Shown piece by piece: positions 4,620-35,798 of a stretch of DNA of 64,000 nucleotides. The translations under genes and the position numbers were made by a program. The notes under the pieces are model-generated. The model was not told the origin of the DNA. It ran no database searches and worked only from the letters and a program-made list of their open reading frames with translations. The DNA is taken from assembly GCA_018304465.1 (NCBI GenBank), contig JAGVWC010000010.1, positions 127,211 through 191,210 on the forward strand, in the 5' to 3' direction. Positions within the stretch are counted from its first letter, which is position 1. Each line of letters starts with the position of its first letter. This DNA is from Candidatus Iainarchaeum sp. (GTDB lineage: Archaea > Iainarchaeota > Iainarchaeia > Iainarchaeales > JAGVWC01).

Positions 4620-7460
4620 TCAGGGAACGTATTCGTACGCGCCGACGTCGGAAACGCTTCCGCGAGTGGAACCGGATTGATCGACCGGAAGAAGCGGGGA
4701 CGCGATCCGGTCCCGCAGGACGGATGTGCCAATCGGCCGGCCGAACGAATCGATTCCCGGATCTCCGATGAAATTCGGGATACCCGGAGTGATCGTCGGT
4801 CCCCCGCCGCTGGGAACGTTGTCCGTGAACGCATACGCGTTATTGGCCCATTTGTTGAAATCGAGGTGACCCAAATCGATCAAGGGCCCAAGGAACAGAT
4901 TTCCCATTCCGCTGGTGCGGCCCATCGGAAGGTTCCGGATCCAGATCAGGTCCGAATCGAAGGTATTGTTCCACCAAACGAGCTGGCTTGTCGGAATCGC
5001 CCAACTGAACAGATTGCCGTAGTTGTTTGGATTCATGTAGGATTTCCGAAAATAATTGTTCACGAACGCGGCGCCGGTGGACTGCGGGCAGGTCTCGAAG
5101 CCGTCGGTCCACATCACCTGGTACCGCGCGTTGGTGATCCGGTTGTTATAAACGATCACGTTGTCGCCGATGCTGCAGGGCGAACCGGATCCCGGACCCC
5201 ACCACTGGAGTCCGTCCGAATGATCCTCGGTCCAAAGCGTCGCGTTGATCGGCCCGTCGGACTGGTTCCACACCCGTCCACGGCCGTTCGAGCAGTCGTT
5301 GGGAAGAATCCGAATCGCGTCTTCGGATATTTTCCCGCCGACCTTGCAATTGTCCATGGACCAGGAACTTCCGGTGTAGACCCGATCGCGCGATGCCCAG
5401 TTGTAGTCGCGAAAAGCGCCTGTTTTCTCGATCACGAAATTGTGGTCGCTGGGATGACCATAAGCGGTATACGTGGCGTTGGTCAGGTCCGCTATGTTGG
5501 GATTCAAGTCATCGGCTTGCGAATTGATGATCAACGCGGTCTGCCGGAACGCGTCCGCTCCGATGCGATCGATTTTCACGTTGCGGGCCAATTTCGCCCC
5601 TGAAACCGCGTAGTCGACCGCAAAGAAAGTCGAGTTGGTGTAATACGCCGGATTAACCACCAGATAACCCGCTTGAACGAACCGCCCCGGCCCCACGAGG
5701 TTGGAATCATCCACCCACACCTGCGCATTGGGAACATGCGCCACATAAACCGCAAAGTCGTTCGTTCCGGTGCTCTTCAAGGTGAGTCCGGTGACTTTAA
5801 GCAACCGCACCTCGGGCGTCCCCCCGTTTCCGTGCGAAAGAATCGTGGTGTCTTTCGCTCCGCTGACAGCCGTCGTGACCGTCACCCACTCGTTTGTCAC
5901 CGGGATTTCCCCCGCGATTCCGCCCTTGGACATCGAGTGAATCCCTGGATTTAACCGCACGATTCCGCTGTCGGCATTGTTCCCGTTTCCTGCGGCCAGC
6001 CTCCACTTCCGGATCGAATCGATGGCTCTGCCGATGGTCTTGAACGGTTTCGCGGAATCGTTGACAGCGCCGGTCGAGTCGTTTCCGGCCAGATCCACCC
6101 AGGCCTGCGCCTGCGGCAGGGTTCCCTTCGGGTTCACGACAAAAATCAAGGCATCCAATCCGAGGTTTCCTCCCCCGGTGCTTTGATCCCGGATACCGCC
6201 GTCTTTTCCTACCACTTTCGCTTCCACGGAAATGACCCCGTCGGATGAAAATTCAGAAACGGAGAGCGAAACCCAATATTCCCACACGCCAGTCTGCGGA
6301 TTCAGCGTCATGGAGGTTGCGGTCTTGGTTCCGCCGGAATACCCCTGGCCGGAAACGGCGAATTCGACTTTTTGTATCCCGGGTATTGAGAACGCGACCA
6401 CGCCCAGATTCAACGTTTCGCCCGGATTGATCCGCTGAAAAGGCACCACGTCCCAGCGCGCGATCGGGACCAAGGCGGCCTGCATGCTACAGTTAGAAAT
6501 ATTGAAATCCTGGCAATTCGAACCGCAGGACAGAAGACCCGATACGAATCCTTCGGTTTGGCACGTTCGGGAATCAAGATCCCATCCGTCGCACTTTTCG
6601 CCCCCTTCCTTTACATTATCACCGCAGACCGGCATGGACAACGATGCGCACAAAGAAGCGTTGAAATCCGAACAATTCGACAAACAAGAAAGCGACCCGG
6701 ATTGGAATCCTCTCGATGCGCAGGTTTGATTGTTCAGATCGGAGCCGTCACATTTCTCATTTCCTTCACGAATGTTGTTTCCGCAAACCGGCGACGGATT
6801 CGAAACGCAACCGGACACGTTGAAATCGGCACAGCTTGAAACGCACGACAACGATCCTGACAAAAAGCCCTTGCTTTGGCAGGATTGCCCCGCAAGATCG
6901 CTTCCGTCGCAGGCTTCGGTCCCCTCCTTGCGGTTGTTTCCGCACACTGGATTCGGCGGGCAAGCGCCACAATCGCTTGGACAAGCGGAACAAGACTCGT
7001 TTCTGCTGCAGTTACGATCCCCGCAAAACGGGCGGGTCACGTTGCAATCGTCGGAACAAGACGCGATGGTTTCGCCGATTCGAGCATTGCAAAAACCATC
7101 CTTGATGCACGGTCCGGACTCGATTTTGCAATCCATCGGACAATTCGAAGCGTTTTCTTTCGGATCACATTTACCGTTGTTGTTACACATGGGCACGGGG
7201 CAGTCCTTTCGACAGGAATTGTAATTCTCCCCGATTTCTGCCTCGCATTCTCCGTTCTCGTTGCAGGCAAAACAATCCAGCAGGCAAGTGAAATAGTTCT
7301 CGCCGGTTTCGCATACCGTGTTCCCGCAGATCGGTTCGTCGGGATCAATAAAAGGCTCGCCGGAAAAAAACCAACCGGATCCCGCATAGATCAGTAAACC
7401 TAAAATCAAAATCCCGATCAGAATCGCTACGCCCGTCGAGAAACCAAGATTTCTGAGCAT
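4620..7460 (-). CDS. Large secreted/anchored surface protein: N-terminal TM/signal, three tandem ~50-aa cysteine-rich repeats, C-terminal right-handed beta-helix (pectate-lyase-like) domain
   Basis: N-terminal VAILIGILILGLLIY. Repeats PVCGNNRKEGTEACDGSDL..C..G..SGSLSC.S.C.DFN.S.C occur three times. C-terminal part has NNRITNA-type beta-helix rungs and is Gly/Asn/Thr rich. 946 aa. Confidence 0.75.
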   Translation of the reverse strand: MLRNLGFSTGVAILIGILILGLLIYAGSGWFFSGEPFIDPDEPICGNTVCETGENYFTCLLDCFACNENGECEAEIGENYNSCRKDCPVPMCNNNGKCDPKENASNCPMDCKIESGPCIKDGFCNARIGETIASCSDDCNVTRPFCGDRNCSRNESCSACPSDCGACPPNPVCGNNRKEGTEACDGSDLAGQSCQSKGFLSGSLSCVSSCADFNVSGCVSNPSPVCGNNIREGNEKCDGSDLNNQTCASRGFQSGSLSCLSNCSDFNASLCASLSMPVCGDNVKEGGEKCDGWDLDSRTCQTEGFVSGLLSCGSNCQDFNISNCSMQAALVPIARWDVVPFQRINPGETLNLGVVAFSIPGIQKVEFAVSGQGYSGGTKTATSMTLNPQTGVWEYWVSLSVSEFSSDGVISVEAKVVGKDGGIRDQSTGGGNLGLDALIFVVNPKGTLPQAQAWVDLAGNDSTGAVNDSAKPFKTIGRAIDSIRKWRLAAGNGNNADSGIVRLNPGIHSMSKGGIAGEIPVTNEWVTVTTAVSGAKDTTILSHGNGGTPEVRLLKVTGLTLKSTGTNDFAVYVAHVPNAQVWVDDSNLVGPGRFVQAGYLVVNPAYYTNSTFFAVDYAVSGAKLARNVKIDRIGADAFRQTALIINSQADDLNPNIADLTNATYTAYGHPSDHNFVIEKTGAFRDYNWASRDRVYTGSSWSMDNCKVGGKISEDAIRILPNDCSNGRGRVWNQSDGPINATLWTEDHSDGLQWWGPGSGSPCSIGDNVIVYNNRITNARYQVMWTDGFETCPQSTGAAFVNNYFRKSYMNPNNYGNLFSWAIPTSQLVWWNNTFDSDLIWIRNLPMGRTSGMGNLFLGPLIDLGHLDFNKWANNAYAFTDNVPSGGGPTITPGIPNFIGDPGIDSFGRPIGTSVLRDRIASPLLPVDQSGSTRGSVSDVGAYEYVP

Positions 7461-20239: not shown

Positions 20240-20324
20240 ATGCAGGGAGGCGGAATCGAACCGCCGAACGCACTAAGCGAAAGGATCTTGAGTCCTTCGG
20301 GTTTGACCGCTCCCCAATCCCTGC
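20240..20324 (-). tRNA. tRNA-Leu (anticodon CAA), class II with long variable arm
   Basis: Minus strand GCAGGGA..AAGGA-CUCAAGA-UCCUU..long variable arm..GGCGG-UUCGAUU-CCGCC..UCCCUGC-A; no encoded CCA. Confidence 0.8.
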
Positions 20325-20360
20325 AGAGGAAATACAATCCGAATGTAACAATGAATTCAT

Positions 20361-24972: not shown

Positions 24973-25090
24973 GGGGCTGTAGTCTAGCCTGGTAGGACTC
25001 GTGCTTTGGGACAGCTTTTTTGCTGCGGCAAAAAACCTGGGAAAAACTGCAAACCAGCACGAAACCTGAGTTCAAATCTCAGCAGCCCCA
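24973..25090 (+). tRNA. tRNA-Pro (anticodon UGG) with a ~45-nt intron in the anticodon loop
   Basis: GGGGCUG..GUCU/GGAC D-arm..CGUGC-UUUGGG-[intron]-A-GCACG..CUGAG-UUCAAAU-CUCAG-CAGCCCC-A. The 52 nt between the anticodon-stem halves imply an archaeal-type intron after position 37. Confidence 0.7.
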
Positions 25091-25136: not shown

Positions 25137-25209
25137 GGGGCCGTAGTGTAGCTTGGTATCACTTGAGGCTGGGGGTCTCAAAACCCGAGTTCGAATCTCG
25201 GCGGTCCCA
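25137..25209 (+). tRNA. tRNA-Pro (anticodon GGG)
   Basis: GGGGCCG acceptor; anticodon arm UGAGG-CUGGGGG-UCUCA; T-arm CCGAG-UUCGAAU-CUCGG; 3' CGGUCCC-A. Confidence 0.75.
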
Positions 25210-25340: not shown

Positions 25341-25898
25341 ATGGCCAAAATAAAACGAACACGCCCCCCAAAAAGGCAGACAAGAAAAAGCACCGGACCC
25401 AAAATGCCGACTCGCAGGTCAACGGAACACGAAATCCGAAGGATGCTTCGTCGAGCCGCGCCCCGCGGGACCAGGGCAGCCGAGATGAAAAGCAGACGAT
25501 TGGCTGAAAACCAAGCCATCGAACAAGGCCTTCACCAATTCTCAGCCGATCCGGTGATCGTTGCCATCCAAGAAAAAATCCAAAACCCCGACGTATTCAC
25601 CTTTGCATTTGGCGCACCTGAACTCAATCATATCGCGCTTGGACAACTAGACGAAAAAGAATACCGATACTTGGCTCAACAACACGGCGTCCGATTGAAA
25701 AAAGGACAATCCACCCCGTACCTGGACGGGCTAAAAGCCCAAACGCCTCACCAACCCGCCGCGACAAACGTGCCGGCACCCAAAGAAACCGCTTCGCGAC
25801 GCCCCGCGCGTTTCGCTCGAAAACCAAAACTCGAACAAAAACCCATATTCACGGTTTTTAAAGAAACGCGAACCCAAATAAAACAGAGAAAAACATGA
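25341..25898 (+). CDS. Hypothetical basic protein (Arg/Lys-rich N- and C-termini)
   Basis: 185 aa; stop overlaps the proS start (ATGA), suggesting translational coupling. No motif recognised. Confidence 0.35.
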   Translation: MAKIKRTRPPKRQTRKSTGPKMPTRRSTEHEIRRMLRRAAPRGTRAAEMKSRRLAENQAIEQGLHQFSADPVIVAIQEKIQNPDVFTFAFGAPELNHIALGQLDEKEYRYLAQQHGVRLKKGQSTPYLDGLKAQTPHQPAATNVPAPKETASRRPARFARKPKLEQKPIFTVFKETRTQIKQRKT

Positions 25899-27406
25899 AA
25901 CCCAACGACAAAAAAAACAAGACATCCGAGTCCAAAAACGTTCGCGAAGACAAAGTCATTTTTAATCTTGACAAAGAAACACAGTTTTCCGACTGGTTCA
26001 CCGAAATCATCAAAACCGCGGAACTCGCCGACTTGCGCTACAACATCAAAGGCTTTTTGGTTTTCCAACCGTGGTCGGTTCTTGCCATGGAAGCCATGTA
26101 TGATTATTTCGAACGCGACCTGCAAAAACGCGGACACAAACCCTACTGGTACCCCGCGTTGATTCCGAAATCCAATTTAACCCGCGAATCCGAACACGTC
26201 AAAGGATTCGTACCCGAAGTGTTCTGGGTCACGGAACATGGAAACAACGAAAAACTCGAAGAACCCTACGCGTTACGCCCCACGAGCGAAACCGCGTTTT
26301 ACCCGATGTTTAGCATCTGGGTCCGTTCCTACAAAGACCTCCCGTTTTTGACTTACCAGCGCGCACAGGTCTGGCGATACGAAACCAAAGCCACGCGCCC
26401 GTTTTTACGCAGCCGAGAATTCTACTGGATCGAAACCCACTGCGGATTCAAAAACGCCTCCGACGCGTACCAACACGTACTCGGCGACATGCAGACCACC
26501 GAACGCGTCATGCACCAGATATTCGGAATCCCGTTCATTTTTTTCCAGAGACCCCAATGGGACAAATTCGCCGGCGCCGACAACACGTTTGCCGCGGACA
26601 CGATCATGCCGGATGGAAAAATCATCCAGCAACCCTCAACCCACATGCTCGGAACCCATTTTGCCAAGGCATTCAACGAAAAATTCAACGACGAAAGCGG
26701 ACAAGAACAACTGGTATACAACACCTGTTACGGACCCGCCATCAGCCGCATGTTCGCTTCCGTGATTTCGTTTCACGGAGACAACAAAGGCCTGCGCTTC
26801 CCTTTCGAAATCGCCCCGGTGCAAGTCATTATCACGCCGATCGCGGCACACAAAAATCCTTCCGTTAACGCGAAAGCCCTGCAGCTGCGAAACCAATTAT
26901 TCGACACGGGTTTACGCGTCGAAGTGGATTCGTCCGACAAAATGCCGGGAGAAAAATTCTATTACTGGGAAATGAAAGGAGTCCCGATCCGAATCGAAAT
27001 CGGACCCAAAGAACTCGACAAAAACGTCGTCATGCTGTACCGGCGCGACACCGAAACCAAAACCGAAATCAAGGAAAAAGACTTGCTTAACGCCATCCAA
27101 AAAAACGCTTTCGAACTATCCGCAAATTTGCGAAAACAAGCGGATCAAAAATTCGAAAACGTGATCCGGGACGCCAAAGACCGCAAAGAACTCGAAAAAA
27201 TCGTGAACGACAGGGGATTTTGCCGATGCAACTTCTGTTCCATCAATTTGGACGGCGCCCGATGCGCGGAAACCGTCGAAAAAGAAATCGGAGCGACCGT
27301 ACGCGGAAAACGCATCGACAAAGACGAAAAACCCTTCGGCACCCGCGAATGCGTCATCTGCAAACAAGCCGCCGGCGTCGTAGTGTACATTGGAAAGCAA
27401 TATTAA
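25895..27406 (+). CDS. proS: Prolyl-tRNA synthetase, archaeal/eukaryotic type
   Basis: Class II core, C-terminal zinc-binding domain (CRCNFC...CVICK), and the conserved C-terminal Tyr (..GKQY). Confidence 0.9.
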   Translation: MKPNDKKNKTSESKNVREDKVIFNLDKETQFSDWFTEIIKTAELADLRYNIKGFLVFQPWSVLAMEAMYDYFERDLQKRGHKPYWYPALIPKSNLTRESEHVKGFVPEVFWVTEHGNNEKLEEPYALRPTSETAFYPMFSIWVRSYKDLPFLTYQRAQVWRYETKATRPFLRSREFYWIETHCGFKNASDAYQHVLGDMQTTERVMHQIFGIPFIFFQRPQWDKFAGADNTFAADTIMPDGKIIQQPSTHMLGTHFAKAFNEKFNDESGQEQLVYNTCYGPAISRMFASVISFHGDNKGLRFPFEIAPVQVIITPIAAHKNPSVNAKALQLRNQLFDTGLRVEVDSSDKMPGEKFYYWEMKGVPIRIEIGPKELDKNVVMLYRRDTETKTEIKEKDLLNAIQKNAFELSANLRKQADQKFENVIRDAKDRKELEKIVNDRGFCRCNFCSINLDGARCAETVEKEIGATVRGKRIDKDEKPFGTRECVICKQAAGVVVYIGKQY

Positions 27407-27428: not shown

Positions 27429-27881
27429 ATGGAAGAATTTTCCCGAACCTTTTCCGCAAGCGCTTACGTGGTCCACGACCAAAAAGTACTCTTGGTGCGC
27501 AACAAAAAACTCGATCTGTGGCTTGCGCCCGGCGGGCACCTGTTGCCAAACGAACTGCCACACATCGGGGCAAAACGCGAAGTCAAAGAAGAAACCGGAT
27601 TAGACATCCGGATTTTTCCAAGCGATGACGAAACTGACATTGACGGCGCAAGCGTCTTACCCAATCCACATCACGTCATCGTGTACAAAATGTGGCCCGG
27701 ACACGAAGTCATCAACATGACGTATTTCGCCAAGCCCGTTTCCGCGATTCTAAAACCAAACGAACGCGAAATCGCCGAGGCTAAATGGGCGGATATTACG
27801 GAACTCGAAAAAATGAATCTTCCAAAAAACACGAAAAAATTCGCGATCGAAGCAATCAAAACCGTTGATGAAAAACCATGA
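27429..27881 (+). CDS. NUDIX hydrolase
   Basis: Nudix box GGHLLPNELPHIGAKREVKEETGLD. The track ORF starts at 27390 overlapping proS; the ATG at 27429 is preferred. Confidence 0.8.
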   Translation: MEEFSRTFSASAYVVHDQKVLLVRNKKLDLWLAPGGHLLPNELPHIGAKREVKEETGLDIRIFPSDDETDIDGASVLPNPHHVIVYKMWPGHEVINMTYFAKPVSAILKPNEREIAEAKWADITELEKMNLPKNTKKFAIEAIKTVDEKP

Positions 27882-28552
27882 AATCCCTCAAAGCAGTCAT
27901 ATTCGATCTGGACGGAACCCTCGTCGACACCATTCCGTTTCACTCGCAATCGTTTTTTGAACTGTTTTCCGACTTAAATCACCCGGTTCCCATGCGGCGA
28001 ATCAGGCCCTTAATCCGCCATCCAACCGAAAAAATATTCGAAAAACTTCACGCGCGAAAACGACTCGGAATGGACATCGAAAAACTCCTGGAACTACGCC
28101 GGAAAAAATACTACGAACTCATCAGAGGAAAAAAAATCGTGTTTTCGGACGCGTATCCCGCGTTATTGGAACTGCACCGCTACAAAAAAGGAATCGCGAC
28201 CAACTCCAGCCGCCAAACGCTTGAAGCCTCCACCAACCAGAGACTCCTGCGGTTTTTCAAATCCACGATCACGTTTTCCGATGTCTTGCGCGCCAAGCCC
28301 AATCCCGAAATGCTCAACAAAATCAGCCGGAAACTCCGCGTAAAACCATCCGAATGCGCGTTTATCGGAGACTCGGTCATGGATATTCGAAGCGCCAAAA
28401 ATGCCGGCATGACATCCATCGGGCTTTATCGAAAAACAGGCGCGTCCACCCTGGCCGACCTACAAAAAGAAAAACCCGATTACTTGATCCGAAAACTCAC
28501 TACGCTTCCCAAAATATTTCGCGAATTAGATCACGCCAACAAAAGGCTTTGA
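27878..28552 (+). CDS. HAD-superfamily hydrolase (beta-phosphoglucomutase-like subfamily IA)
   Basis: Motif I VIFDLDGTLVDT; later GDSVMDIRSAKNAG (motif IV). Confidence 0.8.
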   Translation: MKSLKAVIFDLDGTLVDTIPFHSQSFFELFSDLNHPVPMRRIRPLIRHPTEKIFEKLHARKRLGMDIEKLLELRRKKYYELIRGKKIVFSDAYPALLELHRYKKGIATNSSRQTLEASTNQRLLRFFKSTITFSDVLRAKPNPEMLNKISRKLRVKPSECAFIGDSVMDIRSAKNAGMTSIGLYRKTGASTLADLQKEKPDYLIRKLTTLPKIFRELDHANKRL

Positions 28553-28993
28553 CGAAAAAACCAACCGCCAGTATTCCACTTCTTTTCCCTGAATCGTTTC
28601 CGACCAAATCGAATCAAACGAAAAACCGAATTCGGAATACAGTTTTTTGGCGGCAGCATTGTCATGCGCGACAATGAGAACAACCGATTCCACGCCGCGT
28701 TTCTTTAGTTCCGAAAGCGAAAATTCAAGCAACGTCCGCGCGAGTCCTTGTCGACGAAACCCCTGGGCCACCACAAGACCGTTCATCCGCACCGTCCACG
28801 ATTCGATCCATTCGAACTCGATGAAACCCGAAAACACGCCGTCAGAAACCGTTTTGTACAACAAAAAATCGGGGTTGGATAGTTTTGACTCAAACGGAAA
28901 CTTGTCCACGTCAAGATACGAAAACTCTTTTTTCACAAGTTCGTTGAGCACCGGAAGATCATTGGTGGAAACCGGGGCGATCCGCGGTTCCAT
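28526..28993 (-). CDS. GNAT family N-acetyltransferase
   Basis: Acetyl-CoA binding motif VVAQGFRRQGLARTLL; 155 aa. Confidence 0.75.
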   Translation of the reverse strand: MEPRIAPVSTNDLPVLNELVKKEFSYLDVDKFPFESKLSNPDFLLYKTVSDGVFSGFIEFEWIESWTVRMNGLVVAQGFRRQGLARTLLEFSLSELKKRGVESVVLIVAHDNAAAKKLYSEFGFSFDSIWSETIQGKEVEYWRLVFSSKPFVGVI

Positions 28994-28994
28994 G

Positions 28995-29669
28995 CTAAAC
29001 AGACCTCAAAAAATCCGTGATCTCGATCCCGCTAACCGCGCAACCCGCGAATTTAACGCTCCATAACGCGGCTTCAAGACCCTGCTTTGATTGCGACAGT
29101 TCGCCTTCGAACAATTTTTCCGAAAACGCCAACGCCAACAAGTCGCAGCTACGCACCACGGTAGGCCGCCCCAACAGATCCGAGAGTTTTTTTAATCGGC
29201 TGCTATCGGTTTGCACCTGACGGTCCATCCGCCGCGCGATCAAGGACTGCAAGCGATACGGATCCTCAAGCATCATCCGGCACGTACGCTCGTCAATCGC
29301 CAACGCGTCCGCATTAAGCGACTTGAATACCGCTAGGGCTTCCAGTTCTCCCGCCTGAAGCAACTGCAATGGCTTTTCATTGACAAAAAAAGAATTATTC
29401 GACAATTCCGCAAACTCCGCGTACAACGATCGAAGCGCGTCGCTTTGCGGAATCACTTCGATCCACCGGTCCATCACGGCTTGCTTTAACCGGACCGCGT
29501 TCAGTTCGAAGCGCCGGATCGATTCCGGATGATGCACCGCTTCCTCGAACACGGACTGCGGAATCACGAACCGCAAGCCATGCTGGTGATGCAAACGCTG
29601 CAAAATTTTCAAAAAACACTTTTCGGTAATCGAAATCAAAACGCTCGAATCAAACACGATCGTCGTCAT
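28995..29669 (-). CDS. PIN-domain protein (~225 aa, long C-terminal extension)
   Basis: N-terminus MTTIVFDSSVLI, then FEEAV and AIDERT acidic motifs. The track ORF starts at 29807; the ATG at 29669 is preferred because it overlaps the upstream gene's stop (ATGA). Confidence 0.55.
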   Translation of the reverse strand: MTTIVFDSSVLISITEKCFLKILQRLHHQHGLRFVIPQSVFEEAVHHPESIRRFELNAVRLKQAVMDRWIEVIPQSDALRSLYAEFAELSNNSFFVNEKPLQLLQAGELEALAVFKSLNADALAIDERTCRMMLEDPYRLQSLIARRMDRQVQTDSSRLKKLSDLLGRPTVVRSCDLLALAFSEKLFEGELSQSKQGLEAALWSVKFAGCAVSGIEITDFLRSV

Positions 29670-30229
29670 GGTTTTTTCTCCGCAAGCAATTCTTTCAACC
29701 GATCCACACGCTCGGAAATGTTTTTGAGCACGGGCGTTTCCTCGTGCATTTTCGTAAAACCAATATAATTGAACAACGCTTGCTTGTCGCAACAAGTCAA
29801 ACCGCACGCCTGGCTCAAACTCAGCCCCAGCGCGTACGCGGAACTCGCCTGTTTTACCCGCGCTTTCTCAATGAGGTTTTGCCAGTAATTTCCGAACTCA
29901 AAATCGACCTTGGCCACGGTCGAAACGACGCTGGAAAGTTTTTTCTCAAGCAAACCGAATTCATCGGAGCGGGCCAACGAAACCGCTTCGTTTATTTCGC
30001 GCAAAATCGAATCCGCAACGCGCGGCCAGTTTTTCGAACGCTGAAAATGCGCCTTGCTCAACAGCTTTCCAAGCGAATACGAAATCACGGCGATTTCGGC
30101 TTTTTTAGAATCGTTTTCAAACGCCGCCTGGGCAATCGCGTCGTTTGCGGCTTCGCGTAGCCCCAATTCGCTTTTGGCCAAAAAAGCCTTGGAAACACGC
30201 TCAAGCAGCAACACCATCGATTCGGTCAT
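29666..30229 (-). CDS. Hypothetical all-alpha protein, translationally coupled to the PIN-domain gene
   Basis: 187 aa, predicted helical, no motif; its stop overlaps the PIN gene start. Confidence 0.45.
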   Translation of the reverse strand: MTESMVLLLERVSKAFLAKSELGLREAANDAIAQAAFENDSKKAEIAVISYSLGKLLSKAHFQRSKNWPRVADSILREINEAVSLARSDEFGLLEKKLSSVVSTVAKVDFEFGNYWQNLIEKARVKQASSAYALGLSLSQACGLTCCDKQALFNYIGFTKMHEETPVLKNISERVDRLKELLAEKKP

Positions 30230-30315
30230 ATCAACACCAACGCGTTTGCAATATTAAAACCCGACGATTAAAATAAAACCGCGGATTTAAATACTTTGAT
30301 TTTTTACTATATATT

Positions 30316-31659
30316 ATGAAAAGATTCTCCTTGCTTTTCACGGTTTTAAGCCTGTTTGCCCTGCTATTCACCCCTGTGTTCGCGGCGTTTTCTTCCTCGG
30401 ACGCGGTGTTGTTTGTCACCGAAGAAAACCATTTCCTTGAAAAAACCGAAGACGTCGAACAACCCACCGTTGCCATCACGCACGGCAACATCAAATACTG
30501 GGTGCTGCCCGTGATCCGCGGAACCGACGTCGTCACGTTCATTCCGATTCACATCAACGAAAAAACCGTTTCGCAAAACCAAGCCGTCAACGAACAATTG
30601 TTTTCCACCGCGAATTTTCTGCGATCCTACCTCACCTACAAAAACAGTCTGGCAAGTCAGAACAAAAAATGGTTTTTGGGAAGCGACAACCAATTGATCA
30701 TTGAAAATCTTTCCACAAGCCTCAAAGACTCCGTGTACCGGCTCAACATCGTCAAATCCGAATTTCCCGAGGGAAGCGCCGACATTGCCAAAATGCAAAC
30801 GAACCTGAATTCGATGGCAAGTTCCGCAGCCACCTTGTCCCAATCGATTTTCGAATTCCTGCAAACCGAAAGCGAATTCGTTTCCGCACCCGACACGGGA
30901 AAAACCGCGGCCATCAAAGACCAGCAAGCCGCCACCACGGAATTATTGCTTTTACTTGAAACCCAGGCGCGCGAATACAAAAGCCAAGTCAGCGCCCTCA
31001 AATTGAAAATCTCAAACTCGAATCTTCCGGCGGACAAAAAAAACAATTTCACCAAACTCGTCGACCCACCCGAAGAACTTTACACCATCGGAAGCACCTC
31101 GATCGGAAACTGGGTGATTTTAAGCAACGAAGCGTTGGCGCAAGTCCAATCCATTTACACGAGTTCCAAATCCAAAACGTTTCTCGAAGACGCAAGCAAC
31201 GCGTTTACGGTTCGAAACAACCAGAACGCGACGTACGCGGTATTGTTCGGATTAGACAACGAACTCAAAACCAAAACTCCGTATCCGACCCTTGAAACCG
31301 CCATCAAAGACATCGCGTCCGAACAAAAAAAATCCACGTGGACCAACCAGGACCAGTTGCAGGAAGCCTACACGAACTGGCAAAACGCAAGCGAAGCCTA
31401 CGACAACAAACAATACGATCTGGCGAAAACCCTCGGACAAAAATCCAAAAAAGCCGTTTTACGCGTGATTGCGGACGGAACCGTCGAAATCGAACCCGAT
31501 CCGATCAATTGGGATCTCCTCATGAACGCGCTCATCGCAGGATTCATTCTGATTATTCTGTTGTATTTTGTCAAAAACCGGAACAAAATCATCGGTGCCA
31601 TCGCCCAACCCGCCCCCGAAGAAGGAGTCGACTTAAATGCCTGGAAACGCAACATGTAA
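30316..31659 (+). CDS. Hypothetical secreted, C-terminally membrane-anchored protein
   Basis: N-terminal signal peptide MKRFSLLFTVLSLFALLFTPVFAAFS; C-terminal TM LIAGFILIILLYFV followed by basic residues. Confidence 0.5.
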   Translation: MKRFSLLFTVLSLFALLFTPVFAAFSSSDAVLFVTEENHFLEKTEDVEQPTVAITHGNIKYWVLPVIRGTDVVTFIPIHINEKTVSQNQAVNEQLFSTANFLRSYLTYKNSLASQNKKWFLGSDNQLIIENLSTSLKDSVYRLNIVKSEFPEGSADIAKMQTNLNSMASSAATLSQSIFEFLQTESEFVSAPDTGKTAAIKDQQAATTELLLLLETQAREYKSQVSALKLKISNSNLPADKKNNFTKLVDPPEELYTIGSTSIGNWVILSNEALAQVQSIYTSSKSKTFLEDASNAFTVRNNQNATYAVLFGLDNELKTKTPYPTLETAIKDIASEQKKSTWTNQDQLQEAYTNWQNASEAYDNKQYDLAKTLGQKSKKAVLRVIADGTVEIEPDPINWDLLMNALIAGFILIILLYFVKNRNKIIGAIAQPAPEEGVDLNAWKRNM

Positions 31660-32488
31660 ACTGCTGGTTCTTTTTTTCGTCTTGCTCGCAACCAACGCGT
31701 TTGCGGATCTTGCGGTTAGCATCCAGCCCGCCGACGGAAACACCTTGTTTTATCCAAACGAAGTCCGAGAATACCAGGTGCTGGTCATCAACACCGGAAA
31801 CCAAGCCGAGATCGGAACCCGGTTCGAACTCAACACGTCCGAATCCCTGGTTCTCCTGGAAGAAAACAAGGAAACCGACAAAATCCAGTTCACGTTACCC
31901 GAAATCAAAAGCCGCGACCAAGTCACGGTTCCCATCCGGGTCAAGGCCCGCGACTTGCCTTCGGACCGCGCCATCATCAGCGTCAATTACGGACAAACCC
32001 AGTTCACGGGACTCTCCGCGGTACAACATGTCGTCCGACAACCCGGATTCCAAACCCACACATCCATCCAATCCACCACGATCGCGTTAAACGAAAACAA
32101 CAAAATCGAAGTCACGGCCCGAAACGACTCCAACAACCCCGTTGCCAACATTGTAATCCGGCCCGCGTTGGAACCCGCGCTACAACCCCTCTCCCCGCAC
32201 GTGTACACCCTGGACCAACTGGATGAAAACGAAGCCATCCCCCCCCAAACATTCGAATTCGTTCCCAAAGGAAACGTCCTTGGAAAATTCAACGCTGGTG
32301 TCATCATTGAATTCGACGACGAACAAGGCCACCACGTCATCGACCGCCGATACATCGTAAGCGTCGAAGACCGCTCGATTTCCCTCTTGCTTGCCCTCCT
32401 GCTCATCGGAGCGTTGGCGTACATTTTTTTCGCCAGCAAAGAAAAAGCAAAACCCGCGTCCGAACCAAGAAAAACCGAAAAAAAATAA
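31637..32488 (+). CDS. Hypothetical secreted, C-terminally anchored beta-rich protein
   Basis: Signal peptide LLVLFFVLLATNAFA; C-terminal TM LLLALLLIGALAYIFF plus a KK tail. Confidence 0.5.
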   Translation: MPGNATCKLLVLFFVLLATNAFADLAVSIQPADGNTLFYPNEVREYQVLVINTGNQAEIGTRFELNTSESLVLLEENKETDKIQFTLPEIKSRDQVTVPIRVKARDLPSDRAIISVNYGQTQFTGLSAVQHVVRQPGFQTHTSIQSTTIALNENNKIEVTARNDSNNPVANIVIRPALEPALQPLSPHVYTLDQLDENEAIPPQTFEFVPKGNVLGKFNAGVIIEFDDEQGHHVIDRRYIVSVEDRSISLLLALLLIGALAYIFFASKEKAKPASEPRKTEKK

Positions 32489-32622: not shown

Positions 32623-33345
32623 ATGGACAACGTCATCGAAGCAGTCAAAGTATCAAAAATATACGACATGGGCGAAATCAAAGTGACGGCGCTCAATGAC
32701 GTCAGCCTCATGATCAAACGCGGCGAATTCGTCTCAATCACGGGTCCCTCCGGAAGCGGAAAAACCACCTTGCTCGACATCCTCAGCGCATTGTCCCGCC
32801 CAAGCAAAGGCGAAGTCCTCATTAACGGAGACCCGATTTCGCAAATGACCGATTCCGAACTCGCCTTGGTCCGCGGCAAAACCATCGGATTCGTTTTTCA
32901 AAGCTTTAACCTGATTCCCCGACTCACCGCCCTAGAAAACGTCATGTTACCGCTATGGTTTCAGGGAATCGCGCCGAAAGAACGGATCGAACGCGGTGAA
33001 AAAATCCTTTCCGAAGTCGGACTGGAAGAACGCATGCACCACAAACCCAACGAGCTCTCCGGAGGACAACGCCAACGCGTCGCCATTGCCCGCGCGCTTG
33101 CAGTCGACCCCGACATCATCGTCGCCGACGAACCCACAGGAAACCTCGATTCGAATTCCGGCGCGCTCATATTGTCTTTAATCGACGAACTGCATCAGAA
33201 ACGCGGAAAAACAATTCTTATGGTCACGCACGAACGCTACGTCGCCGAACGCGCCGAACGCATCATTCATATTAAAGACGGAAAAATCGAACAAAGCGAA
33301 GCCGTCAAGAAAAAAACCCAAGAAATTCGGAGGAACTACAAATGA
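32623..33345 (+). CDS. ABC transporter ATP-binding protein (MacB/LolD-like)
   Basis: Walker A ITGPSGSGKTTLL, signature LSGGQRQRVAIARAL, Walker B IIVADEPTGNLD. Confidence 0.9.
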   Translation: MDNVIEAVKVSKIYDMGEIKVTALNDVSLMIKRGEFVSITGPSGSGKTTLLDILSALSRPSKGEVLINGDPISQMTDSELALVRGKTIGFVFQSFNLIPRLTALENVMLPLWFQGIAPKERIERGEKILSEVGLEERMHHKPNELSGGQRQRVAIARALAVDPDIIVADEPTGNLDSNSGALILSLIDELHQKRGKTILMVTHERYVAERAERIIHIKDGKIEQSEAVKKKTQEIRRNYK

Positions 33346-34565
33346 ACCAAAAACCCATCGCCATACTTGCGATCCTGCTGCTTTTAACCGTCAATGCCGC
33401 GGCAGGCGCAGTCCAGATCAGCACCGTTACCTACACTCCTGCACCCGCGGCACCCGGACAACTCATCACGGTATGGGTCACCCTCAAAAATAATTCCCAA
33501 AACATCGCGCAACAAGTCACGGTCGAACCCCAGCCAGCCTACCCGTTTACGTTAAGCGCGACCGGAAACAACATGCTTTCATTTGACGCCATCGCTCCGT
33601 TCCAAACCGTTACCGGCAAACTCGAAATCGAAATCGACAAACAAGCCTTGAACGGAACATACCCGCTTGAAATCCGAGCTGCGGAAACCGGCGGAATGGG
33701 AGGCGTTTCCTCCGTATTACAAATCCGAGTTATTTCATACAAACCCCAGATTGAACTGATCACCGCGGACTTGCCCAGCGTGGAAGCCGGACAAACCGTC
33801 AACACCATGATCACCATCAAAAACATCGGCAGCTCCGGCGCCATCAACGTATTGGTCGGAACATTCGACAACGCCGCAAGCACCACCACCAGCACGTTTC
33901 CGATCAAAAACATCGGACCCACCTTGATCTACGTGGACGCGCTGGGACCCAACGAAACCAAACAAATCCCGATGATGTTTGGCGTTGACCCTACGGCCGA
34001 ACAAAAAACCCATTTGGTTCCCATTACCATCAAATACCAGGACGAAAACCGCTCCGACTTTTCGGTCACCCGATACCTCGGAATGCGCGTGCAATCGGAC
34101 GCCGAACTCGACGCATACCTCACGTACGAAGACACCGCCAAACCGACTCCCGGCGCAACGACCGAAATCACCGTCAATCTCTTTAACCGCGGAGCCGCCA
34201 CGGCCCGAAACATCGTGGTGCAAGTGGAAGACAGCCCTTCCATCGACATTTTGTCCGAATCCAAAGTCTTCATCGGAACACTCGACCCGGACGACTTCGA
34301 TTCCTTCAAACTCAACGCGCATATCAAAAACGATTTGGCACCGGGAAAAACCTATCCGATTCGACTGCGGTTTGAATTCAAAAACCAGGACAACCAAACC
34401 CAAGTCATCCAAAAAGACCTCAACCTAAACGTATTCGACGCCAATCTCGCCAACGGCGGCACCCAAACCGGATTCCCATGGGATCTTGTGGTGATCGTCA
34501 TCGTACTGGCCGTGATCGGATATTTCGGATACAAACGGTTCTTTGGAAAAAAAACCGGCAAATAA
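33342..34565 (+). CDS. Extracellular beta-rich (CARDB/DUF11-like) protein with signal peptide and C-terminal TM anchor; putative periplasmic-type component of the MacB/FtsX locus
   Basis: Signal peptide IAILAILLLLTVNAAAGA; repeated Ig-like segments; C-terminal WDLVVIVIVLAVIGYFGY followed by a KRFFGKK tail. Confidence 0.55.
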   Translation: MNQKPIAILAILLLLTVNAAAGAVQISTVTYTPAPAAPGQLITVWVTLKNNSQNIAQQVTVEPQPAYPFTLSATGNNMLSFDAIAPFQTVTGKLEIEIDKQALNGTYPLEIRAAETGGMGGVSSVLQIRVISYKPQIELITADLPSVEAGQTVNTMITIKNIGSSGAINVLVGTFDNAASTTTSTFPIKNIGPTLIYVDALGPNETKQIPMMFGVDPTAEQKTHLVPITIKYQDENRSDFSVTRYLGMRVQSDAELDAYLTYEDTAKPTPGATTEITVNLFNRGAATARNIVVQVEDSPSIDILSESKVFIGTLDPDDFDSFKLNAHIKNDLAPGKTYPIRLRFEFKNQDNQTQVIQKDLNLNVFDANLANGGTQTGFPWDLVVIVIVLAVIGYFGYKRFFGKKTGK

Positions 34566-34586
34566 AATAAAAACGGAAAATCCATT

Positions 34587-35798
34587 ATGGATCTCGAAAT
34601 CCTAAGCGTCGCCATCAATAACCTGCGGCACCAAGGCCTGCGAAGCTACCTGACACTCCTTGGCGTAATCATCGGAATCGCCTCGATTTTCGCCTTGGTG
34701 TCGATCGGCGACGGACTCAACGCGTCCGTTACCGAACAATTCGAAAAACTCGGAAGCAACACGATTTTCATCGCTCCAGGCGGCACGTTTTCAAGCGGCA
34801 GCGGAAGCCCCACCGCCACGGTGACGTTCAAAGACAGCGACATTGCACGCCTTGAAAGTTATCCCGAAGTCAAAAACGTCATTCCTTTTTTTGCCACAAG
34901 CACGGTCGGAAAACACGGAAGCGACCAAACCACCATCAGCATTTTTTCGTACGATCCCGACAAATCCGAATCCCTTGAAGAAACCGGAACCATCGAAGTC
35001 CAGGAAGGACGCTTGTTCAACAACCAAGACGTGTTCGCCGCCATGGTCGGAGAACAATTCGCCGAAAAAGCGTTTTCGCGCGAAATCGGACTCAAAAACA
35101 TCATTGAAATCAACGGAAAAAAATACAAAATCGTCGGAATCCTAAAACCCTCCAGCCAAAACATCGGCGGCGGAGGCCCCGAAACCAACAACACCGTGTG
35201 GATACCTGAAAAAGGCGCCCGACAAACATTTCCGAATTACGCGTCCAACTTCATGTTCGCCCAAACCTTCAACAAAGACCAAGTCGCGTCCGCCAAAGAC
35301 AAAATCCAGCGCTACTTTGACCGCGTTTACGGAAAAGACCAAACCACCGTGCAAACCAGCGAACAATTACTGGACCAAATCAAACAATTCCTCGCGATCA
35401 TCTCCGGCACCCTCATCGTGATCGCGCTCATCTCCCTGATTGTGGGCGGCATCGGCATCATGAACGCCATGGTCATGACGGTCCTGGAACGCACCAAAGA
35501 AATCGGCACCATGAAAGCGCTTGGCGCCACCAACACCCGCATCATGACCTTATTCTTGCTGGAAGCAGGCCTCATCGGACTCGTCGGCGGATTACTCGGA
35601 AGCCTGCTTGGATTTCTCATCGGCCAAGGCATGTCCATTGCGGGTCAAGCCGCCGGCATCAATCTCCAAGCCGTGGCCACCCCGGAATTATTCCTGTTCG
35701 TGCTCGCGTTTTCAATTATTATCGGAATGATTTCCGGTGCCTACCCCGCCTGGCGCGCCTCCAAAATGGATCCCGTCGTCGCGTTGCGATACGAATAA
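34587..35798 (+). CDS. ABC transporter permease, FtsX/MacB-like with large extracytoplasmic domain
   Basis: N-terminal TM, ~250-aa periplasmic domain, C-terminal FtsX 3-TM bundle; ends ...KMDPVVALRYE, as does the paralog at 60605. Confidence 0.85.
   Translation: MDLEILSVAINNLRHQGLRSYLTLLGVIIGIASIFALVSIGDGLNASVTEQFEKLGSNTIFIAPGGTFSSGSGSPTATVTFKDSDIARLESYPEVKNVIPFFATSTVGKHGSDQTTISIFSYDPDKSESLEETGTIEVQEGRLFNNQDVFAAMVGEQFAEKAFSREIGLKNIIEINGKKYKIVGILKPSSQNIGGGGPETNNTVWIPEKGARQTFPNYASNFMFAQTFNKDQVASAKDKIQRYFDRVYGKDQTTVQTSEQLLDQIKQFLAIISGTLIVIALISLIVGGIGIMNAMVMTVLERTKEIGTMKALGATNTRIMTLFLLEAGLIGLVGGLLGSLLGFLIGQGMSIAGQAAGINLQAVATPELFLFVLAFSIIIGMISGAYPAWRASKMDPVVALRYE

Follow-up and report, generated by a model that had tools for sequence, protein, structure and literature searches.

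The UPF0175 family (COG2886, PF03683) has been described as an antitoxin of the helix–turn–helix (HTH) type that accompanies PIN genes (PMC2701414) and is reported to occur exclusively with COG2405 (PMC5499597), the DUF3368 family (PF11848). Canonical UPF0175 proteins have 72–92 residues and canonical DUF3368 proteins 150–164, and the canonical examples of this predicted type II toxin–antitoxin (TA) pair used below are plasmid-borne, with one lying beside an integrase. Two other kinds of PIN protein bear comparison with the system described below. HARP (PIN_5, the Aq_880-like protein-only RNase P) is a PIN protein of about 200 residues with helical additions and a housekeeping role in RNA processing, and an origin from a TA toxin has been proposed for it (PMC6380272). 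PDC-S70 is a candidate single-gene defence system consisting of a PIN nuclease; it is reported to be predominantly archaeal and the PDCs to be enriched in DPANN, and PDC-S70 itself is without experimental validation (PMC12988326).

The locus considered here lies in a stretch of 64,000 nucleotides from Candidatus Iainarchaeum sp. (contig JAGVWC010000010.1), referred to throughout as the window. It comprises a PIN-domain gene and, upstream, a gene for what we term the partner protein. A first-pass annotation had read the two as a translationally coupled pair encoding proteins much larger than classical VapB and VapC, and had suggested a non-canonical PIN nuclease system acting in defence, in RNA processing or in a TA-like manner. 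The size comparison and the general label are both correct. Because both proteins give profile–profile matches to the canonical families, we assign the pair on its sequences to a divergent, enlarged UPF0175–DUF3368 (COG2886–COG2405) module. The kind of module is known; what is new is the added domains and the core-genome lifestyle, and a literature search found no paper describing the enlarged family. Our preferred reading, to which we give a probability of about one in two, is that the pair is a domesticated, vertically inherited and apparently single-copy core operon of the Iainarchaeota (Diapherotrites) and Micrarchaeota, derived from a UPF0175–DUF3368 TA module.

Homology of both proteins to the UPF0175–DUF3368 pair

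Profile comparison of the two ORFs, suggested as a check in the first-pass annotation, was made with hhalign against four PGAP-annotated UPF0175/DUF3368 pairs from cyanobacterial and Fervidibacter plasmids. The PIN protein has the Rossmann-like alpha/beta/alpha fold of a PIN domain, and its family aligns with canonical DUF3368/COG2405 at 96.9% (E 1.4e-10) over 149 columns, with query residues 3–220 matched to template positions 2–153 of 160. An HMM built from the four canonical DUF3368 proteins matches 178 of 186 PIN-family members and, in the six-frame translation of the window, only the PIN ORF (E 8e-5). The relationship is recovered by profile–profile comparison and not by the curated Pfam models: in hmmscan searches of current Pfam-A, neither the window protein nor any of 119 family members matched PF11848 at E<=1. 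The PF11848 (DUF3368) labels that are precomputed in the protein database for nearly all members, some of which carry PF26425 (PIN_halo), are therefore not reproduced at the HMM–sequence level. Sequence searches of Pfam, NCBIfam and the PDB with the window PIN protein gave nothing significant, leaving the PADLOC PDC-S70 models (E 1.3e-7 on residues 3–133) as its one match in a curated library.

The PIN protein is longer than its canonical relatives (224 against 150–164 residues), and the first-pass annotation had placed the additional length in a C-terminal extension of about 90 residues. This was mistaken. Since hhalign aligns the canonical proteins end to end with residues 3–220, the C-terminal helices belong to the DUF3368 family; a C-terminal helical hairpin is common to both, as are the motifs D...E...GExE...(I/L/V)D(D/E)(R/K)xxR. 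The extra length of about 65 residues is internal, in conserved insertions at the invariant IRRFELNAVR helix region, in the segment before GExE and in a two-helix insert. The last of these is the largest; it follows the DERTxR helix and precedes the final strand of the PIN fold, and its helices span residues 137–148 and 156–166 in the AF2 model.

The acidic metal-binding site is fully conserved. Among 186 distinct PIN-family sequences, with about 180–185 aligned per position and identities down to about 31%, residues D7, E43, E108, D126, E127, E135, R131, R173, S174 and G209 are 100% conserved, C18, C210 and K206 are 99% conserved, and position E110 is 96% acidic. The acidic residues align with the canonical motifs VSDT, VYxE, GEAEAI and ID(D/E)R. 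Predicted secondary structure and the motif alignment suggest that D7, E43, E108 and D126 are the four canonical PIN acidic positions. The first-pass annotation had singled out the FEEA and AIDERT motifs; D7 and E108, also candidates for catalysis, had been overlooked. Full conservation of the acidic residues in the alignment points to strong purifying selection on the nuclease site. The two highly conserved cysteines, C18 (29618–29616) and C210 (29042–29040), are far apart in sequence and could be joined in a disulfide, bind a metal as a pair or belong to an interface.

The partner protein is all-alpha, as had been proposed for this ORF of 187 residues, with ten helices in the AF2 model (pLDDT 77.6). 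Its layout is that of an N-terminal helical bundle (residues ~1–115), a UPF0175-type HTH (117–162), a conserved loop (Y-I-G-x-T-K-x-H-D/E-E, with T159-H162-E164 invariant) and a C-terminal helix. Residues 117–162 match canonical UPF0175/COG2886 in hhalign at 94% (E 1.4e-7). PF03683 is matched by 37 of 113 partner-family members (best E 6e-6), at about residues 138–166, while the next commonest Pfam family is matched by seven. In a profile search the partner family comprised 691 clusters (50% identity), with proteins almost always of about 185 residues. The window protein itself gave nothing significant in sequence searches of Pfam, NCBIfam and the PDB, and fold comparison of its model returned no informative structural neighbour; PDB profile searches with the family alignments produced only chance or low-complexity helical matches. 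As judged from the alignments, the novelty of the partner is the N-terminal helical bundle of about 115 residues, which is absent from canonical UPF0175.

In these respects the pair differs from VapBC, in which both proteins are much smaller: the PIN protein has no significant PF01850 match, and the HTH of the partner is of the UPF0175 type and not RHH, AbrB or Phd. The core-genome behaviour described below is a further difference. The PIN protein has neither a match to PF08745 or COG1458 nor the HARP-type helical insertion, and HARP, considered as an analogy, is the nearest conceptual precedent for domestication without being a homologue at family level. The first-pass annotation had allowed that the upstream ORF might belong to a housekeeping family and the PIN protein to a Nob1-like rRNA-processing type, with no conserved pairing. 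Neither gene shows such a match, and the PIN protein has no zinc ribbon (CxxC...CxxC) following the PIN domain as in Nob1.

Organization of the locus

The features of the locus are listed in Table 1. The ATG of the PIN gene (29669–29667) and the TGA of the partner gene (29668–29666) share the tetranucleotide ATGA, and the resulting PIN protein begins MTTIVFDSS. A longer reading of 270 residues, initiated at GTG, was rejected as an artefact of ORF extension because every homologue begins at ATG. The window carries one copy each of the partner and PIN genes, and the GC content of the locus is ordinary compared with the rest of the window.

Table 1. Features of the partner–PIN locus; positions are those of the 64,000-nucleotide window.
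Feature	Position	Strand	Basis or description
Partner gene, 187 aa	29666..30229	(-)	ORF; AF2 all-alpha model; family search; Pfam; hhalign
PIN-domain nuclease gene, 224 aa	28995..29669	(-)	Divergent DUF3368/COG2405 type; internal insertions; intact acidic site
UPF0175-like helix–turn–helix segment, partner residues 117–162	29744..29881	(-)	hhalign region; Pfam match positions in relatives
ATGA start/stop overlap, partner/PIN	29666..29669	(-)	Read from sequence
Two-helix PIN insertion, ~residues 136–166	29172..29264	(-)	hhalign gap versus canonical DUF3368; AF2 helices
GNAT acetyltransferase, 155 aa, RimI / N-terminal acetyltransferase-like	28526..28993	(-)	Pfam, NCBIfam and PDB matches
Candidate archaeal TATA box TTTTAATATT	30250..30259	(-)	Sequence; 21–30 nt 5' of partner ATG

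Adjacent co-directional genes that overlap or lie close together, with the antitoxin homologue upstream, are exactly the architecture of a type II TA system, and both the gene order and the 4-nt overlap are those of the plasmid-borne pairs. That both genes are homologous to those of the canonical pair, that the catalytic residues are intact and that the upstream gene encodes an HTH likewise agrees with a functional chromosomal type II TA of the UPF0175–DUF3368 kind, fixed and vertically inherited in reduced genomes. The PIN protein would then be a growth-arresting RNase and the partner would neutralise it and repress the operon, with loss of the partner under stress freeing the toxin. We regard this explanation as a serious rival, though less likely than domestication. 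A simple antidote would have no need of the conserved 115-residue domain of the partner, and no conserved operator palindrome was found upstream of the partner across related loci, where only a TATA/BRE-like element recurs. The earlier description of the pair as TA-like thus holds for ancestry and architecture (UPF0175 HTH, DUF3368 PIN, gene order and 4-nt overlap); it does not extend to the behaviour of a mobile TA or defence system.

The recurrent element is AAAGGATTAAATA-like; in many related loci it sits 25–35 nt ahead of the partner ORF (21–35 nt with the window included). From its sequence and position, the candidate TATA box of Table 1 may be the promoter element of an operon transcript that is leaderless or has a short leader. 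In the window, the 86-nt intergenic region between the divergent genes also contains an imperfect palindrome, TAAAACCGCGG/CCGCGGATTTA, with 11-nt arms (30274–30289), 45–60 nt upstream of the partner start, which could be an operator.

That the genes lie on the minus strand, and that a third gene encoding a GNAT acetyltransferase is present, had been overlooked in the first-pass annotation. Only 1 nt separates the PIN stop codon from the ATG of the GNAT gene, for which reason the partner, PIN and GNAT genes look like a closely packed three-gene operon. The GNAT protein matches Pfam Acetyltransf_1 (E 1.2e-14); in NCBIfam its best match is rimI, below the family cutoff. A TacT/AtaT-like (tRNA-acetylating) toxin was considered and rejected, the best PDB matches being RimI, Naa30 and Ard1. 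The gene ends convergently with that of a HAD hydrolase (27878–28552, +), the two 3' ends overlapping by 27 nt (28526–28552), which leaves no room for separate terminators.

The window neighbours of the pair are a prolyl-tRNA synthetase (ProRS), NUDIX, HAD, GNAT and an ABC transporter. They are housekeeping genes and do not constitute a defence island; no defence or mobile-element genes are present among them, and XPF is absent from the window. Divergent from the partner gene are two overlapping genes (30316–31659, + and 31637–32488, +) for proteins of 447 and 283 residues. The ends of these proteins resemble signal peptides or transmembrane segments, neither protein matches a Pfam family, and the two may represent a surface-protein module conserved in DPANN. 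In the window they are followed by a set of ABC transporter genes of the MacB/FtsX type (32623–35798).

Some further observations concern the window at large. Immediately upstream of the ProRS gene (25895–27406) are a 118-nt tRNA identified by Rfam (24973–25090, +) and, adjoining it, tRNA-Pro(GGG) (25137–25209, +). The former was missed by ARAGORN, probably because it contains an intron; conversely, the tRNA-Leu(CAA) reported by ARAGORN at 20240–20325 (-) is absent from the Rfam list at the gathering threshold. The Rfam scan of the window returned tRNAs only; neither RNase P RNA nor any other informative RNA was found close to the locus. Throughout positions 1–64000 the GC skew is strongly negative (-0.05 to -0.22), whatever the strand of the genes, and the cumulative curve is monotonic with no switch point.

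Conserved pairing in a housekeeping, non-mobile context

The profile search returned at least 446 PIN clusters of 220–235 residues, and a PIN relative is encoded in at least 525 GTDB species genomes. Those clusters that carry a name derive from Diapherotrites/Iainarchaeum, Micrarchaeota or unclassified 'archaeon' bins, and a PIN protein identical to that of the window is on deposit for a MAG of Candidatus Diapherotrites (Iainarchaeota, DPANN). Each of the best 80 of the at least 525 loci belongs to a different assembly. The labels of these assemblies are Iainarchaeota, Micrarchaeota or unclassified archaeon, except for four otherwise-labelled bins that are evidently mis-binned, and so these best 80 loci are confined to two DPANN phyla, a point of difference from canonical UPF0175–DUF3368 pairs.

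Co-occurrence of the two genes in other genomes, another check proposed at the outset, is pronounced: the partner is present in 84 of 86 loci and lies directly upstream of the PIN gene in 76. In a set of 80 loci the commonest spacing is -4 nt (23 loci, 20 of them with ATGA), the overlap read directly in the window; the spacing lies between -20 and +15 nt in 57 of the 80, and in five the genes are 383–3233 nt apart. In-frame partner–PIN fusions with short linkers occur in four separate clusters at 50% identity, P0215 (410 aa), P0226 (429 aa), P0274 (380 aa) and P0138, which ends after about 67 PIN residues. The fusions are rare, being found in four of 150 listed clusters out of 691, and could include assembly frameshifts. 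Both fused forms and genes separated by 0.4–3.2 kb are hard to reconcile with the labile antidote of a functional TA system.

Pairwise distances of the PIN and partner proteins are strongly correlated (r = 0.84), a co-evolution that would be expected of a TA pair as well. The mean pairwise distance is 0.55 for PIN against 0.46 for ProRS in the same loci; PIN divergence is only modestly above that of ProRS, and its conservation is near that of ProRS. Such conservation is atypical of TA systems, and so is the retention of a single syntenic position among housekeeping genes in two phyla and at least 525 species. The patchy, multi-copy and mobile-associated distribution typical of TA genes is not seen in the best 80 of the at least 525 loci, where the pattern is one locus per assembly.

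The gene neighbourhood is itself conserved. GNAT directly follows PIN (+1) in 56 of 86 loci, and ProRS is present in 50 of 86, in the Iainarchaeota convergently after GNAT. The two secreted or membrane proteins encoded divergently upstream are conserved in 43 and 28 of the 86 loci, and a Drg-type GTPase, a SpoU methylase and a DNA ligase recur near the Iainarchaeota loci. In the Micrarchaeota (loci L068, L071–L078, L080 and L083–L085, at about positions 4630–5440) the gene following PIN is a short XPF (ERCC4 + HhH2, ~232 residues), at position +1 in 11 loci and +2 in three; at +1 it is co-directional with PIN, at a spacing of -32 to +63 nt, and often overlaps or abuts the PIN stop.

This synteny also bears on the suggestion that the PIN gene is an antiviral defence gene of the PDC-S70 type, possibly acting by abortive infection. 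The PADLOC PDC-S70 models do match the N-terminal 130 or so residues of the PIN protein (~1–133) with E values of 1.3e-7 to 3e-6, a partial match covering profile positions 2–105 of 162, and the archaeal bias of PDC-S70 and the DPANN enrichment of the PDCs fit the organisms concerned (PMC12988326). Nevertheless, we consider a defence role very improbable. PDC-S70 is a candidate single-gene system that has itself not been validated, whereas the enlarged pair belongs to a conserved operon of two or three genes in a context without a defence island, and invariant synteny with one locus per assembly is the opposite of how defence genes behave. Searches of viral contigs (IMG/VR), plasmids (PLSDB) and phages (INPHARED) recovered no relative, although this silence is weak evidence because DPANN viruses and plasmids are poorly represented there. 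The defence reading put forward in the first-pass annotation, like that of a mobile TA, therefore fits poorly with the conserved housekeeping setting, the 80 assemblies represented by the best 80 loci and the lack of matches in those collections.

A proposed domesticated nuclease and its substrate

One syntenic housekeeping locus shared by two phyla, strong conservation, lineage-specific additions to both proteins, fusions and occasional unlinking of the genes lead us to favour a domesticated cellular nuclease over a mobile toxin or a defence gene. We propose that the partner, the PIN protein and the RimI-like GNAT are probably transcribed from the TATA-like promoter upstream of the partner gene and translationally coupled. 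The partner and PIN proteins would form a stable complex, a suggestion that the in-frame fusions in four clusters support at the level of sequence, and the PIN subunit would be an active Mg2+-dependent endonuclease. The partner would serve as a nucleic-acid-binding, specificity or regulatory subunit and not as a labile antidote, acting through its HTH, the invariant loop T159-H162-E164 and the helical bundle gained at its N terminus.

As to the substrate, the hints from the neighbourhood disagree, with translation genes in one phylum and XPF and DNA ligase in the other. PIN proteins of the VapC group are RNases. Since the Iainarchaeota neighbours are related to translation and PINs of this clade cleave RNA, we favour by analogy an RNA substrate, in the processing or quality control of tRNA, rRNA or mRNA. 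DNA is a live alternative because XPF lies directly downstream in the Micrarchaeota. DNA flap nucleases are among the members of the PIN-like superfamily (Matelska 2017, PMC5499597), the HTH of the partner is of a DNA-binding type, and an ATP-dependent DNA ligase is encoded within a few genes in 14 loci. Taken with the position of XPF, these observations would suit a DNA-directed replication or repair nuclease in which the partner targets PIN to DNA structures, cooperating in the Micrarchaeota with the short ERCC4–HhH2 protein. We judge this unlikely as an account of the pair as a whole.

Within the domestication reading, we suggest tentatively, as something possible and short of probable, that the Iainarchaeota and Micrarchaeota inherited from their common ancestor a UPF0175–DUF3368 TA module already exapted as a two-subunit PIN endonuclease, specific to this lineage and essential, which now carries out a core step of nucleic-acid processing. 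The step might be a cleavage in RNA maturation or quality control that falls to a different enzyme in other archaea, or repair with XPF. Such an enzyme would add to HARP a second, independent instance of a TA toxin recruited for housekeeping, here with its antitoxin retained and enlarged as a functional subunit.

There is a consequence for surveys of defence genes. Because the PADLOC PDC-S70 models match what appears to be a syntenic core PIN gene with an E value of about 1e-7, censuses of PIN-type candidate defence systems in DPANN (PMC12988326) may in part be counting a housekeeping gene.

If domestication is correct, the pair is a clear genomic example of how archaea with reduced genomes have made a conserved enzyme complex out of a TA module while keeping the antitoxin, in elaborated form, as one of its subunits. 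It would also define an unannotated family of protein pairs that Pfam has missed, with the PIN protein in at least 525 species genomes and about 690 partner clusters at 50% identity, and would offer biochemists a concrete target in organisms about whose machinery for processing RNA and DNA little is known.
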